Of a DNA stretch of 50,018 nt, positions 20,664 to 25,179 are shown in pieces. The notes under the pieces are model-generated. The model was not told the origin of the DNA, did no database searches, and worked only from the letters and a program-made list of their open reading frames with translations. Source of the DNA: Fibrobacter sp. (lineage in GTDB: Bacteria; Fibrobacterota; Chitinivibrionia; Chitinivibrionales; Chitinispirillaceae); NCBI GenBank assembly GCA_012728995.1, contig JAAYEB010000355.1, positions 1-50,018 of the forward strand. Direction: 5' to 3'. The stretch's first letter is position 1; each line of letters opens with the position of its first letter. A program made the translations under genes and the position numbers.

Positions 20664-21947
20664 ATGAAACCTTTTATAATACTTATATTCACTGCCCTGT
20701 TTTCAGTTAACGTGTTGTATGCATCAAATATCTCCAGCAATCTTCGTTTCGGAGGATACATTGAGAACAAAACTGTTTTAACTGTCTCTTCGGATGAACT
20801 GATAAGCGATAATGCACTTGCACGTCTTGAGGGTACATGGGATATTGGCAAGTGGGGCGGCATAGAAACCCATGTAATTTTATCTGCTCCACTTCAGCCT
20901 CTCGACCCGTTTGAAACTATCCGAAATGGTTCGGTCATGGACAGGAGTTTACAGCAGGCATTGTACCCTTTTTTGGAAAAACTTGATGATTTCATTCCAT
21001 CAGGCGACAGCACCGAACCATTGCTGTCAGAAAAAGATGCACAGCGTATTATCTGGCATCTGCCGTATTCAACCTTTTACCCAACCGACAAGGTGGTTCT
21101 GGACAGGGCTCTTATCAAGACATATTTCAAGCATTTTGATCTGTTTGTCGGGCGTCAAATGATTGCATGGGGGACCGGGTATGCTTTTAATCCTACTGAT
21201 ATATGGAACAGCAAAAACCCTCTTGATCCTGATGCGCCAAAGGTTGGTGTAAATGCGATACGCCTTGAGATACCGCTTGGAATACTCTCCGGTATTTCTC
21301 TGATAGCATCACCGGGACACGATTTCAAACACTCCAGTGCCGGCTTGAGAATTAAAAGTAATCTGGGGCATTTCGATTTTTCGCTAAGTGGAATGCGAAT
21401 AATGAATTCGGACCGTGCACTCCTTGGTTTACCGCCAAAAATTGTTGCAGGAGCTGATTTTACAGGAGAAATTGGTGATATTGGAGTATGGGCTGAAGCG
21501 GCATTTAACAACCCGGTTTACAGTGGAATGGAATACACTGATTTTGATTCAAGTTTTGTTCAGGCAGTCGCAGGGCTTGACTATACTTTTGATAATGGGT
21601 TATACGCAATTGCTGAATATTATTTCAATGAGTCCGGATGTAAAGACAGTGAAGATTACGGTGCAAAAGAATTGATTAAGCTTCTGACAGGTGAAATGTC
21701 TGGTTTGGGCAGGCATTATCTTTTCGGAGGTGTTCAATACAGCATAGCCAATCAGTATGATTTTTCACTATTTGCTCTTGGTAATCTAACAGACCGCTCT
21801 GTCATGTTGATGCCTTCTGTTACTTTTATTCCAAATGATATTATCAGTATTGAAATAGGAGCACAGGCAGGGATCGGAGATCACAAGAAGAGTGAATACG
21901 GAGGAGCATTTCCCAATCTGTTTCTTACAGTAAAGGGATATTTTTAA
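20664..21947 (+). CDS. Putative outer-membrane beta-barrel protein (DUF1302-like partner of MMPL exporter)
   Basis: Signal peptide, alternating amphipathic strands, C-terminal '...KGYF' aromatic terminus typical of OM barrels. Third gene of the MMPL operon. Confidence 0.4.
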   Translation: MKPFIILIFTALFSVNVLYASNISSNLRFGGYIENKTVLTVSSDELISDNALARLEGTWDIGKWGGIETHVILSAPLQPLDPFETIRNGSVMDRSLQQALYPFLEKLDDFIPSGDSTEPLLSEKDAQRIIWHLPYSTFYPTDKVVLDRALIKTYFKHFDLFVGRQMIAWGTGYAFNPTDIWNSKNPLDPDAPKVGVNAIRLEIPLGILSGISLIASPGHDFKHSSAGLRIKSNLGHFDFSLSGMRIMNSDRALLGLPPKIVAGADFTGEIGDIGVWAEAAFNNPVYSGMEYTDFDSSFVQAVAGLDYTFDNGLYAIAEYYFNESGCKDSEDYGAKELIKLLTGEMSGLGRHYLFGGVQYSIANQYDFSLFALGNLTDRSVMLMPSVTFIPNDIISIEIGAQAGIGDHKKSEYGGAFPNLFLTVKGYF

Positions 21948-22399
21948 TGAACATAAAATACGAACAATCTATTAATCTTTTTTGAAATAGTAAAGATTAT
22001 TTGGGGCTAAAGGCTTCTGTTTTCCCGCTAACGGGACCACCTGGCACTTTTAGTGCAGCTTAAGACTTGGTTTTGGGGGCACGCACGAAGTCTGGTTGCA
22101 GTATAAGATTACCTTATAACTGACTTCCATAGCATTTATTTTTATTCTTTCTTCAACTTCTACCCCCAGTCCCTCTTCTCTCACAGGAGATGGGGGTCCG
22201 AAAAACATTAATGAATACCAGGAATAAACTGTAATAGCTTATACATAAACCTATACTTTATCCACTTCAGTGGATTAAGAAACACAAGCTCTCCGCGGCC
22301 GTTATGTTGAGCTTCACCTGCACCAAAGAAAAGCAGCTTTTATTGTTCGAGTTCCGCTAACCTCATTTACTTTGTAAAATTCAAATAAGATTTTCATGT

Positions 22400-22468
22400 C
22401 CGCCGAGCGCACACGACCCCCGCGGTAGTTCATTGCAGCTCTGAAACTCCTGTTTGGGGGCGTGTGGT
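22400..22468 (+). repeat. Module C copy 1: long hairpin cgcacacgacccccg...[~35 nt loop]...gggggcgtgtg
   Basis: An 11 bp GC-rich stem with a single-nt bulge. Further copies at 23159-23228 and 23799-23868. Loop substitutions differ between copies while the stem is preserved. Confidence 0.7.
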
Positions 22469-22837
22469 AACATTTGAATAGTTCCAAATTAAAGAGAATT
22501 TAGAAACCAATCAGAAATAATCGCAATAAAATTACAAACAATCGGATAAAATCGGAAACAATAAAATAGAAATTACAAACTTTCCAGTATTAATGAATTG
22601 AACAATTAAGAATATAATCAAATTTTCTTGCTTGTTTCCACTTCAGTGAATTAAGAAACACAAGCTCTCCGCGGCCATTATGTTGAGTTTCACCTGCACT
22701 TAAGAAAAGCAGCTTTTACTGTTCGAGTCCCGCTGTACTCATTTACTTATTAAGCGAGGATAAAAAATGTTTTCGAGCGGGCGAGTTTAAAAGCTGCGTA
22801 CTTTTTTAGACCCTAAAAATTTTACTTCTTTTTTTAT

Positions 22838-23015
22838 GTGCAGGTGATTAGCGAAACATGGCCGCCAAGGGCATTTTGTCATTACCATTCTTTAACCGTA
22901 AGGTGTTTAGCCTTCGGCTTTGCTATATTATATAATTTTGCGGTTTGGGTACTTTTTTGCCCTGGAAAAAGTACCTCGTCGTTCGGGCGCGAAAGCCCGT
23001 ATAATTTATTTTTAC
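22838..23015 (+). repeat. Module B copy 1 (the second copy is at 23567-23745). Contains a UUCG-loop hairpin (agccTTCGgct), a GNRA-like hairpin (gggcGCGAAAgccc), and a segment that is the inverted complement of part of module A.
   Basis: The two B copies are ~95% identical. 'gtgcaggtgattagcgaaacatggccgcc' is the approximate reverse complement of the module A segment 'ccgcggccgttatgttgagcttcacctgcac'. Confidence 0.65.
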
Positions 23016-23158
23016 TACCATTCTTTATATAATGTAAAATTCAAATAAGATTTTCATGTTCGCCGGGCGCACACGACCCAGCTTTAATAATGACAATTTT
23101 TCAAATGATAAGTTTTATGTTCGCCGAACGCACTTTTTGATTTTAAAAGATTATCTGG

Positions 23159-23228
23159 GTCGCCGAGCGCACACGTCCCCCGCGGTAGTTCATTGCAGCT
23201 CTGATAATCCTTTTTGGGGGCGTGTGGA
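23159..23228 (+). repeat. Module C copy 2
   Basis: Same hairpin as 22400-22468, with a single A to T change in the stem (cacacgTccccc). Confidence 0.7.
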
Positions 23229-23798
23229 AACCTGTGTATAGTTACGGTTTACAGGAAAATCGGAAACCAATCAGAAATAATAGGATTAAAATTACAAACA
23301 ATCGGATAAATCGAAACCAATAAGATAGAAATTACAAACTTTCCAGTATTAATGAATTGAACAATTAAGAATATAATCAAATTTTCTTGCTTGTTTCCAC
23401 TTCAGTGAATTAAGAAACACAAGCTCTCCGCGGTCGTTATGTTGAGCAGCACCTGCACCAATGAAAAGCAGCTTTTTTGTTGGAGTCCCGCTGTACTCAG
23501 CGGCGATTTTAAAAGCTGCGTAATGACTAAAGTCATAAAATTCTTTTTTACATTCCATTCTTTTTCTGTGCAGGTGGTAAGCGAGACATGGCCGCAAGGG
23601 CACTTTTGTCATTACCATTCTTTAACCGTAAGGTGTTTAGCCTTCGGCTTTGCTATATTATATAACCTTGCGGTTTGGGTACTTTTTTGCCCTGGAAAAA
23701 GTACCTCGTCGTCCGGGCGCGAAAGCCCGTATAATTAATTTTTTACTACCACTCTTAAAAAATAATATTATTTGAAATTAAGAATTAAGATCATCTGG

Positions 23799-23868
23799 GT
23801 CGCCGAGCGCACACGACCCCCGCGGTAGTTCATTACAGCTCTGTAACTCCTGTTTGGGGGCGTGTGGA
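23799..23868 (+). repeat. Module C copy 3
   Basis: Same hairpin as the other C copies. The loop reads 'cattacagctctgtaact'. Confidence 0.7.
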
Positions 23869-23996
23869 ATCCTGTGAATAATTCCTGTTTACCAGAAAAT
23901 CAATAAAACAACTCCCTAATATCCACTATACTAACTCACCAAGAACCCAGATTGCCGGTTCACCCGGAGTTATGTGCTCGGCTGCGCCTACGCGAA

Positions 23997-24120
23997 CCGG
24001 CTTATGCGCTCGGCGTATAAAGTTAATATCTTTATCTGGTAATAGGCTTATGCGCTCGTCGTATAATGTAAATATCTTTATCTGGTAATAGGCTTATGTG
24101 CTCGGCATAACAAATTATCC
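23997..24120 (+). repeat. Iteron-like tandem ~46 bp repeats (ggcttatgcgctcggcgtataaagttaatatctttatctggtaatag, about 2.5 copies)
   Basis: Direct tandem repetition read from the sequence. Each unit carries the near-palindrome ttatgcgctcggcgtataa. Confidence 0.7.
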
Positions 24121-24261
24121 TCACTGTAATTTAATAGTCGGGACTTGTGCAGTCGGCGTAACATAAATATCCTTATTCTTATTCTATTCTATAAACAGGA
24201 TAATAATAGTAAAGATTATTATCAGCTAAAGACTTCCTATACAAAAAATAAATTTGGACAT

Positions 24262-25179
24262 TTACTTCTTATTAAAATTAAATTTCTGATAAAAACCAGC
24301 TACCCACTCATCCGATTCTCTTGTAAGTCCTTTTTCAAGGTTCAAAGTAAATGTGCTGCGGTTAAAAAGACGTTTTATCTGTAACCTCAAAACTGAGTAG
24401 TGTGCCAGTTGTGTTGCACGAAGTCCGTTATACATTCCACTGAGCTGCATAACACCTTCCCATTTATTCCACAGTTTTCTGTAAGAAACTCCATAAGGAA
24501 TTTGATCAGCCTGAGCAGACCCCCTGACATACTCTACCGGACTCCCAAGAGGAGCCAGACCGATTCTTGCACTCAAATAATCCGATTCCGTAATTTTCTT
24601 TGACAAGGAAAAAATAAGGAAATAATCTGCAACCCCGGTACCTGCACCAGCCAGACCATTACTTTCATAATAATTGTGATCATTTTTCCAGATAGTGTAT
24701 GGCTTGGCACTTGAAAATTTTACTCCGATGGTAAATGCCACTGAAGGGATAAACTTTTTCTCTTTAACTAACCTGACCTTTGTTTCGAAACGCGGAGATT
24801 TACCTCCGGTGTTTTTGATACTTTTATAAGGGAATTCAATAAACAGATCTGTCAATTCCAGTTTTAACATGACAAAATCAGCAGGGTAATATTCAAAATA
24901 AAGCGGAATGATAAACATAAGGCGCTCTTTCCACTCATCATTTTTTACCATTGGCATTTTTGATGTGTAAAAAGCCACAAAACCGGTTTCGAAACTCCAG
25001 GTACCGGATTTCTCAAAATACGCATCATCCATCCGTGAATAGATGTACCCCATCTGATGTCCGAAATTGAAAATATTCCTGTGAATAGTATTACCTGTAT
25101 CTGCTGCTAAGCACCCAATTGATTGTATTATAATCAGTATTAAAACTGTAACTCCAACAAGATTTTTATTAGAATACAT
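24262..25179 (-). CDS. Hypothetical secreted / outer-membrane protein
   Basis: Signal peptide (MYSNKNLVGVTVLILIIIQSIGCLAA), aromatic-rich beta-strand-like composition, no recognisable catalytic motif. Confidence 0.4.
   Translation of the reverse strand: MYSNKNLVGVTVLILIIIQSIGCLAADTGNTIHRNIFNFGHQMGYIYSRMDDAYFEKSGTWSFETGFVAFYTSKMPMVKNDEWKERLMFIIPLYFEYYPADFVMLKLELTDLFIEFPYKSIKNTGGKSPRFETKVRLVKEKKFIPSVAFTIGVKFSSAKPYTIWKNDHNYYESNGLAGAGTGVADYFLIFSLSKKITESDYLSARIGLAPLGSPVEYVRGSAQADQIPYGVSYRKLWNKWEGVMQLSGMYNGLRATQLAHYSVLRLQIKRLFNRSTFTLNLEKGLTRESDEWVAGFYQKFNFNKK

Follow-up and report, generated by a model that had tools for sequence, protein, structure and literature searches.

What is the GC-rich 11-mer CGCCGAGCGCA that recurs in both orientations in a gene-free gap of a Fibrobacter sp. 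contig? The contig (JAAYEB010000355.1) comes from the Chitinispirillaceae of the Fibrobacterota, and its positions 1 to 50,018, the whole stretch that we analyzed, are referred to as the window. An initial annotation had read the copies as transposase binding sites at the ends of Tn7-like, Mu-like, or CRISPR-associated transposon (CAST) elements, or as the iterons of a replication origin. According to our analysis, the gap probably holds a cluster of a lineage-specific, dispersed, modular noncoding repeat family of uncultured Chitinispirillaceae, of the same kind as repetitive extragenic palindromes (REPs), bacterial interspersed mosaic elements (BIMEs), BOX elements, and miniature inverted-repeat transposable elements (MITEs). 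The family is new and does not pass the defining tests of REPs, classical MITEs, integron sites, Tn7, Mu, or CAST ends, or iteron origins.

The 11-mer and its modules in the window

Seven copies of CGCCGAGCGCA with at most one mismatch were found in the window, every one of them within 22401-24061, while the chance expectation is 0.16 and none of 100 shuffles reached seven. The repetition of the motif in forward and inverted orientations, as annotated initially, is therefore real. The copies, with two more divergent reverse ones, are as follows.

22401-22411, plus strand: forward 11-mer that starts module B1
23061, plus strand: forward 11-mer CGCCGGGCGCA, head-only copy
23122, plus strand: forward 11-mer CGCCGAACGCA, head-only copy
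23161-23171, plus strand: forward 11-mer that starts module B2
23801-23811, plus strand: forward 11-mer that starts module B3
24005-24015, minus strand: reverse 11-mer, exact CGCCGAGCGCA, in the E module
24051-24061, minus strand: reverse 11-mer with one mismatch, in a tandem head-only unit
23973-23983 and 24097-24107, minus strand: reverse 11-mers with two mismatches each

The positions annotated before were broadly right, but the copy placed at 23049 was about 11 nt off, its true start being 23061, and the sequence near 24150, gtgcagtcggcg, resembles the motif only weakly. A 46-bp tandem is indeed present at the right end but is not perfect: Tandem Repeats Finder (TRF) placed it at 23999-24106 with 2.3 copies and 91% matches, and identity to unit 1 is 93% for unit 2 and 67% for unit 3. 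What had been overlooked are the longer repeats in which the forward 11-mers are embedded. Each forward 11-mer opens a B module or a head-only remnant at the 5' side, and each reverse 11-mer is part of an E module or of its tandem head-only units; the forward copies fall at 640- to 760-bp intervals because whole composite B-S-A-C units recur.

The gap that holds the cluster (21986-24236, ~2.25 kb) contains no credible open reading frame (ORF) and is noncoding, and the earlier statement that no transposase or Rep gene lies there still stands. It is flanked by convergent genes at 20664-21947 (plus strand) and 24262-25179 (minus strand), neither of which has a Pfam match. By comparing the gap with itself, we found three copies of a ~110-nt module A, three copies of a ~115-nt module B, and two copies of a ~285-nt module C, as well as a 712-nt direct repeat (22387-23079 versus 23147-23819, 82% identical). 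A 32-nt direct repeat, D9, bounds the cluster (21986-22017 and 24205-24236, 84% identical). The modules form a head-to-tail mosaic in the order B0-P-A1-B1-S1-A2-C1-h-h-B2-S2-A3-C2-B3-E-(46-bp x3)-B0', where h is a head-only copy; bit scores below are from the covariance model of B, R1.

21986-22120, plus strand: B0, a degenerate B-like copy with the outer head TAAAGATTAT and without the canonical 11-mer; its first 32 nt are repeated at 24205-24236, and its part ...GTGCAGCTTAAGACTTGGTTTTGGGGGCACGCACG is similar to the 3' half of B
22140-22260, plus strand: P module (CCCCCAGTCCCTCTTCTC...GGGGG)
22258-22372, plus strand: A1, an A module that lacks a C partner, adjoins B1 directly, and is 91-92% identical to A2 and A3
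22384-22500, plus strand: B1 (R1, 131.6 bits, E = 2.9e-41), the head followed by the hairpin CACACGaCCCCC / 35-nt loop / GGGGGCGTGTGG
22501-22636, plus strand: S1, an A-rich spacer with AATCGGAAAC-type short repeats (TRF period 20 at 22525-22580)
22634-23035, plus strand: A2-C1 structured unit
23047-23133, plus strand: two head-only copies (motifs at 23061 and 23122; partial R1 match at 23044-23118), 61 and 39 nt upstream of the next head
23144-23260, plus strand: B2 (R1, 124.6 bits)
23261-23392, plus strand: S2 spacer, within the 712-nt repeat
23393-23762, plus strand: A3-C2, second structured unit
23784-23900, plus strand: B3 (R1, 128.3 bits)
23936-24020, minus strand: E module, with the head CGCCGAGCGCA at 24015-24005, TAAG, and then the hairpin GCCGGTTC (24001-23994) / 32-nt loop / GAACCGGC (23961-23954)
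23999-24136, minus strand: 46-bp tandem of three head-only E-type units, with heads at 24015, 24061, and 24107 (family D5, 100/93/67% identity)
24205-24236, plus strand: B0', a truncated B0-like start (AATAGTAAAGATTAT...), the right boundary of the cluster

Together, B3 and E make a 215-bp unit with inverted heads (23801-24015). The ORFs listed over A3-C2 (23349-23618 on the minus strand and 23439-23738 on the plus strand) were rejected as artifacts of the ORF list; A2-C1 and A3-C2 align with a gap of 37 columns, which is no multiple of 3, in the variable hairpin loop.

This anatomy bears directly on the transposon-end and origin readings. At Tn7, Mu, and CAST ends, several sites lie within ~100-150 bp per end, are inverted between the ends, and are enclosed by 5'-TG...CA-3', and iteron origins have direct 17- to 22-bp iterons at helical-repeat spacing beside a rep gene, together with DnaA boxes and an AT-rich unwinding element. 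The cluster resembles such sites in having direct and inverted copies of a single motif and short head-only arrays at 39-, 46-, and 61-nt spacing. However, the forward motifs, except for the triplet spaced by 61 and 39 nt, are 640-760 bp apart in separate composite units, and each opens its own ~115-nt hairpin module, instead of being lined up as an array of binding sites at one transposon end. The inverted copies at the right end do give B3..E inverted ends, as at about ten other loci; the reverse motifs are those of the E module. TGT...ACA termini are absent from the window cluster, and no tnsB, tniQ, DDE, or rep gene lies near any copy. The motif spacings range from 39 to 760 nt, which is not iteron-like, the window has 16 DnaA boxes against 16.2 expected, and there is no GC-skew switch at the cluster. 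Moreover, a REP-like commonness of the motif, named in advance as the outcome that would speak against those readings, is what we found, since the motif is dispersed over more than 70 unrelated intergenic loci, and no partner element with transposase, TnsB, TniQ, or Rep genes sharing the end motifs lies near the ~80 loci. We therefore consider it extremely improbable that the motif copies are Tn7-, Mu-, or CAST-like transposase binding sites or origin iterons.

A dispersed family of modular repeats

The dispersal of the modules was followed through retrieved contigs and loci, which carry L-numbers as labels. We found the B core at 73 metagenome loci, some 20 of which come from the window's own sample, Ga0123335, and in five contigs of one Chitinispirillaceae metagenome-assembled genome plus one contig binned as Mariniphaga. 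The window corresponds to contig Ga0123335_1000642 (Joint Genome Institute sample 3300009680), and an identical cluster is present in another sample. Covariance model R1 detected 98 copies of B in 450 kb, and the 11-mer motif has 157 matches in 561 kb around the copies. Almost all copies (110 of 115) are intergenic, with 23 between convergent genes and 26 between divergent genes; among those between co-directional genes, nine are on the same strand and five on the opposite one, showing no clear strand bias of B relative to neighboring genes. Homologues of the flanking 305-aa protein carry the names Chitinispirillaceae or Fibrobacterota, which places the host in that lineage; one relative with 76% identity in this protein has an E-type head at the contig end, and no B was found in 36 kb from more distant relatives. 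Thus, the family is multicopy, intergenic, and largely confined to this Chitinispirillaceae lineage. BLAST searches of phages and plasmids and scans of viral contigs gave no match to the B and A-C cores, and a full-text literature search for the sequence strings gave chance matches only.

The repeats also leave a mark on assemblies. Shorter contigs that share the window's flanking gene come to an end within the cluster, at 23933-24069, many B copies stand at contig ends, and it is because of the repeat family that contigs of the Chitinispirillaceae host end at these sequences. The contig binned as Mariniphaga sp. (Bacteroidota), L008 (DASRQG010000261.1), carries B-S-A-C at 82-94% identity to the window copies; it is probably misbinned, or else reflects a transfer, as the other evidence puts the family in Chitinispirillaceae.

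The A, B, C, S, E, and P modules recur in many combinations over ~80 loci, with B-S-A-C-B(-E) as the preferred order. B is solitary at most loci, and B-S-A-C, A-C-B, B-E, A-C alone, and tandem B were mapped as well. S matches adjoin B in ~20 loci, and the P sequence sits 3' of B also in L031, L048, and L059 (P has 81% identity by blastn in L017/L041 and further matches in L031, L050, L053, L059, and L073). Head-61-head or head-39-head layouts like those of the window are found in L023, L050, L057, L063, L067, L017, L031, and L084, and B0 has weak homologues (70-86% identity) next to head motifs in L034, L038, L044, L028, and L009, while the exact 13-mer AATAGTAAAGATTAT of B0' was not found at any other retrieved locus. 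A regular array was also seen at L033:171-2319, where four of five co-oriented B copies form a ~244-nt tandem and three have the compensatory stem variant CCCAC/GTGGG or CCCAT/GTGGG.

What the modules share is the head. The 11-mer is the core of this imperfect palindrome of ~21 nt, which has a 9-bp stem with two mismatches and a 3-nt loop. B-type heads read CATGTTCGC-CGA-GCGCACACG in the context ...AAGATyaTCATGTT-CGCCGAGCGCA-CACG, and E-type heads read TTATACGC-CGA-GCGCATAA; the outer arms of the palindrome change jointly between the two types, from TGT...ACA to TTAT...ATAA. The head precedes at least four body types, namely, B, E1, E2, and the head-only units, which repeat at 39, 46, or 61 nt. 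In the B module (~115 nt), it is followed by the hairpin CACACG-a-CCCCC ... GGGGGCGTGTGG and a less conserved tail, the G+C stem consisting of 6 bp, a bulged base, and 5 bp around a variable loop of 35 to >150 nt. E1 has TAAG and the hairpin GCCGGTTC/GAACCGGC with a long loop, and its stem shows compensatory variants (GTCGG/CCGAC in L009 and L028, GCGGG/CCCGC in L049), while E2, likewise a hairpin with a long loop, consists of the head and TAAGCCCCGAC...GTCGGG. From the B alignment, RNAalifold recovered the outer stem alone, which is almost invariant in sequence; on the model-based alignment, this stem is 97% paired, with double changes at four pairs (for example, CCCAC/GTGGG in L016 and L033), and no consensus structure appeared in the loop. 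Two further candidates within B were rejected: a second hairpin (CCTGT...ACAGG) is not conserved or shows no covariation in the alignment, and a small 10-codon ORF, ATG TTC GCC GAG ... TAG, has CTGGGT for ATG and CAG for TAG in many copies.

Several comparisons bear on a rearrangement or mobility of the modules. The window B copies share 75-81% identity with one another and 80-85% with their best matches elsewhere, and because they are no closer to one another than to those copies, the array is not a recent tandem duplication. Neighboring B-B pairs are co-oriented in ~24 of 27 cases, and ~10 other loci have B..E units of 215-616 bp with ~23-bp inverted heads. L051:5179-5296 and L056:5062-5217 represent the same locus in two strains, with flanks 97-99.7% identical; the B loop is the canonical 35 nt in L051 and is ~73 nt, AT-rich, and made of AAATTCGAAA-type repeats in L056, so, judged from these two sequences, the loop can be exchanged without a change in head or stem. 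L011 and L023 have flanks 96% identical and different module contents. A tyrosine-recombinase gene that is intact in L028 is reduced to its last third in L073, where it directly borders a C module, with 95% nucleotide identity from the junction on. A breakpoint immediately 5' of CGCC was seen when L055 was compared with L038.

It seems, then, that the modules are or were nonautonomous mobile or recombinogenic DNA, in which an enzyme acting in trans would recognize head plus hairpin and clusters would grow by orientation-specific insertion or recombination beside an existing copy. Once placed, modules would be transcribed within a 3' untranslated region or intergenic RNA, and in such transcripts the hairpins, like the A-C fold, could function as RNA elements. 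In this respect, the idea of a nonautonomous, trans-bound site is partly retained: the DNA is repeated and nonautonomous and the motif is plausibly recognized in trans, but it is not a transposon-end array. Similarly, the iteron-like tandem repeats survive as head-only arrays at 39-, 46-, and 61-nt spacing, a spacing that is not iteron-like.

Several known repeat systems are close to the family in kind. REPs and BIMEs too are high-copy intergenic imperfect palindromes in mosaic clusters, often just downstream of genes, and show compensatory and G-T stem changes (PMC3733652, PMC2817692). Distinct short modules recur in changing combinations across intergenic regions here as in BIMEs and BOX elements. 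Nevertheless, the copies here are co-oriented, whereas REP copies in BIMEs alternate, the modules reach 400 nt, and the host belongs to the Fibrobacterota, not the Proteobacteria, with no REP-associated tyrosine transposase (RAYT) found in the 561 kb around the copies. BOX of Streptococcus pneumoniae is modular (boxA-boxB(n)-boxC), and the enterobacterial repetitive intergenic consensus (ERIC) is a long imperfect palindrome; like the present family, both are intergenic and noncoding, with predicted RNA folding and no identified transposase. There is no sequence relationship with either, and this family has more module types, a head common to several bodies, and a multihelix unit of 330-400 nt instead of a single long hairpin. 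The nonautonomous, multicopy 215- to 616-bp B..E units with their ~23-bp inverted heads resemble MITEs and REP doublets forming hairpins (REPINs), but no cognate insertion sequence (IS) was found, and the flanks of the B..E units show no consistent target-site duplication.

Several observations weigh against a mobile repeat family of the REP, BIME, BOX, or MITE kind. Neither a transposase, a RAYT, nor another enzyme with matching ends was found, so that mobility is inferred and not shown. No clean filled and empty site pair was recovered, which leaves element ends and target duplications undefined, and an empty-site comparison through homologues of the flanking 305-aa protein failed because synteny is gone at 70-76% identity. 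Unlike classical MITEs, the majority of B copies stand without an inverted partner. A REP palindrome spans 20-40 bp, its stem having 5-13 bp and its loop 2-20 nt (PMC3733652); the head fits in size, but the conserved unit, at ~115 nt, exceeds the REP size, its stem measuring 12 bp and its loop at least 35 nt. The B module and its head also lack the terminal GTAG or CGTC tag of REPs: the head is flanked by ...TCATGTT and CACG or TAAG, and GTAG occurs only in the B loop (GCGGTAG), where it varies to GCGACAG, GCGGCAG, and GCGGTAA. Because every locus was retrieved through the B core, the invariance of B sequences is partly forced. Finally, orthologous copies are kept between strains at 93-97% identity, while divergence within the family is ~70-85%; by this persistence and divergence, the family is old, and what maintains it may be selection as RNA and not selfish spread.

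Dispersed structured repeats matter for genome plasticity and for breaks in metagenome assemblies, may serve as RNA stabilizers or recombination sites, and are essentially undescribed in Fibrobacterota. The head and B hairpin, captured in covariance model R1, provide a ready lineage marker. Two leads arise from the family, the ~400-nt unit supported by covariation and a striking but lineage-limited linkage to Rpn nucleases; if neither holds, this would be an ordinary selfish or structural repeat family.

The A-C unit as a candidate structured RNA

The A-C unit of ~330-400 nt is predicted to fold into four nested long-range helices, a 5' hairpin, and two 3' hairpins, with an optional 66-nt insert that contains CC-GTAA-GG. 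Its helices include GCGGCC..ATG / CATGGCCGC, CACCTGCAC / GTGCAGGTG, and GCAGCTTTT / AAAAGCTGC, and a helix CCCGC/GCGGG either encloses a variable loop of ~40 nt or is replaced by CCCGAC-TTCAC-GTCGGG. RNAalifold and single-sequence folding gave the same fold independently. A helix GCUCU/AGGGC and a pseudoknot in A-C were rejected, being not conserved or without covariation in the alignments.

Could the modules simply be multicopy genes for structured noncoding RNAs (ncRNAs), A-C of ~330-400 nt and B of ~115 nt, so that the window holds a tandem gene array and the dispersal is a gene-family expansion? The alignment of A-C (16 copies, partly redundant) speaks for this reading: 94.2% of cells are paired, compared with 32-42% when the partners are slid, and five pairs with 17 double-changed cells covary, a covariation score that none of 500 shuffles reached. 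In the hairpin GGTACTTT/AAAGTACC, one pair is seen as G-C, U-A, and A-U. Large insertions are confined to loops, the internal-loop sequences are conserved, and the fold contains the GNRA-capped hairpin CC-GTAA-GG and the T-loop-like GTTCGAGTCCCGC. For A2-C1, the minimum free energy is -125.8 kcal/mol (z = -7.1) on the plus strand and -111.8 kcal/mol (z = -4.4) on the minus strand, and one-sided changes in helices 2, 3, and 5 mostly give G-U on the plus strand (10 versus 3). However, the overall counts of G-U versus A-C are 16 versus 14, which do not settle the strand, and DNA hairpins such as attC and REP covary too. The scan for sigma-70 promoters and terminators in the window remained at chance level, with no conserved promoter or terminator, and B has neither a clear strand bias relative to genes nor a consensus structure in its loop, while its stem is nearly invariant. 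We regard dispersal by expansion of ncRNA genes as rather unlikely. The predicted A-C fold fits an RNA but may instead reflect selection on hairpins at the DNA level, and the unit may be a new structured RNA.

A bolder proposal goes further: A-C, possibly with the flanking B hairpins, would be an undescribed class of large structured ncRNA on a mobile or recombinogenic Chitinispirillaceae element, with the head as the site of a partner enzyme. It cites the four co-axial long-range helices, the T-loop-like motif, the GNRA-capped optional domain, and the covarying terminal hairpins, and we hold it to be unlikely. If true, A-C would join element-borne RNAs such as the IS110 bridge RNAs, the TnpB/IscB omega RNAs, and the ornate RNAs of the ROOL/GOLLD type.

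Searches against known RNAs gave little. Rfam returned no match at gathering thresholds over the window and, at E values up to 10, only chance-level matches to ceN45 and RAGATH-9, and a scan of the window for tRNA and tmRNA found none. In module A, the T-loop-like GTTCGAGTCCCGC is followed by 7 nt and A (22730-22745, also 22354-22369 and 23488-23500); the stretch resembles the T-loop, T-stem, and acceptor 3' half of a tRNA, with the partner of CCCGC lying downstream, not upstream, and ARAGORN called no tRNA in this region.

Nucleases and recombinases beside the repeats

If the dispersed repeats are moved in trans, a partner enzyme might be expected among their neighbors. No TnsB, TniQ, Mu-type, DDE, Y1, or Rep genes were found beside the ~80 retrieved copies, and no RAYT (IS200/IS605-type Y1) was among the recurrent ORF families in the 561 kb around them. 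An arrangement of the RAYT type was rejected, as the ORFs between inverted B copies encode an acetyltransferase and a methyltransferase. Genes of the rve type were seen in L103-L110, with no head motifs nearby.

By clustering the ORFs around the copies, we found a single recurrent family, the Rpn-type PD-(D/E)XK nucleases (PF04754, TIGR01784), as genes or fragments at 13 loci. They fall into two subtypes that are 27% identical and have variable GIEK/KGIE repeats, and in 9 of 10 cases across both subtypes, a same-strand B head lies 35-115 nt past the rpn stop codon; in four loci, B is also found ~230-250 nt upstream of rpn. A further B comes after each stand-alone C-terminal RpnS-like fragment, giving gene-B-fragment-B arrays in L049, L067, and L038. 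The rpn genes flanked by co-oriented B are as follows.

L038:83-1433
L065:33-1290
L049:27-2056
L067:1-1704
L071:5105-6063
L013:2949-3541
L082:12917-13616

This linkage raises the question of whether the adjacent Rpn nucleases, annotated as 'putative transposases' (PF04754), recognize or cleave the heads and hairpins and spread or rearrange the modules. The regular position of the head behind the only recurrent protein family speaks for it. Against it, homologues with 56-66% identity occur in other Fibrobacterota without nearby B, for which reason we rejected Rpn as the general partner, and the window cluster has no rpn gene. RpnA has been described as a nonspecific nuclease (PMC5350276), and Rpn proteins belong to toxin-antitoxin defense genes and are not autonomously mobile (PMC10400941); the KGIE-type repeats and stand-alone C-terminal copies fit that toxin-antitoxin biology (PMC10400941). 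Duplication of the rpn 3' end with its downstream DNA, a known origin of RpnSs genes, also explains part of the association. Taken together, we judge a role of Rpn in spreading the modules to be most unlikely; the Rpn-B link is lineage-specific and may reflect hitchhiking or duplication. In L095 (Fibrobacter sp.), a different GC-rich repeat, GTACCTCGCGGAGCCGCGGAGCGCGCAGGAGGAAG, occurs twice (L095:1135 and L095:3469), one copy lying 54 nt past an rpn stop codon, where B sits in the Chitinispirillaceae lineage.

The co-oriented arrays also recall integrons. Integron attC sites carry the boxes R''-L''...L'-R' (RYYYAAC...GTTRRRY), extrahelical bases, and a variable terminal structure. B and E might accordingly be attC-like folded sites for a tyrosine recombinase in arrays resembling integrons or clusters of attC sites lacking integron integrases (CALINs), with A-C units, rpn genes, and RpnS fragments as cassettes. 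Like attC sites (e.g., the Vibrio cholerae repeats), B is a ~115-nt, species-specific repeat with an extrahelical base and a variable terminal loop, and the ~24:3 co-orientation and the gene-B-fragment-B arrays recall attC/CALIN arrays that separate short cassettes. In L028, moreover, an XerC/D- or IntI-like recombinase gene lies 140 nt from a B/E unit. However, B has GTTCGCC and CACACG/CGTGTG instead of the R and L box consensus (GTTRRRY/RYYYAAC), and most copies are scattered singly, on either strand, between ordinary chromosomal core genes, with no consistently adjacent integron integrase. The L028 protein scored 180 bits with TIGR02249, below the cutoff of 265, and a tyrosine recombinase as the partner was rejected, since 14 contigs with homologues of 94% or 58% identity have no head or B within 0.3-4 kb. 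The integron-like reading is thus very unlikely, and the dispersed modular repeat family remains our preferred account.

The recombinase gene has features of its own. At L028:3462-4824, it is intact and encodes 455 aa with an N-terminal extension of ~180 aa, while in L073:13026-13476 and L059, the last third remains, with an in-frame stop, and begins exactly at the end of the C module. At 90% identity, the recombinase cluster comprises 45 sequences, and with homologues on many short contigs, the L028-type gene itself looks multicopy or mobile.

Elsewhere in the window, no restriction-enzyme domain was noted among the scanned ORFs neighboring an N6/N4 DNA methylase gene (PF01555; 27048-28103, minus strand), which lies between genes for an M50 peptidase and an alpha-2-macroglobulin-like protein.

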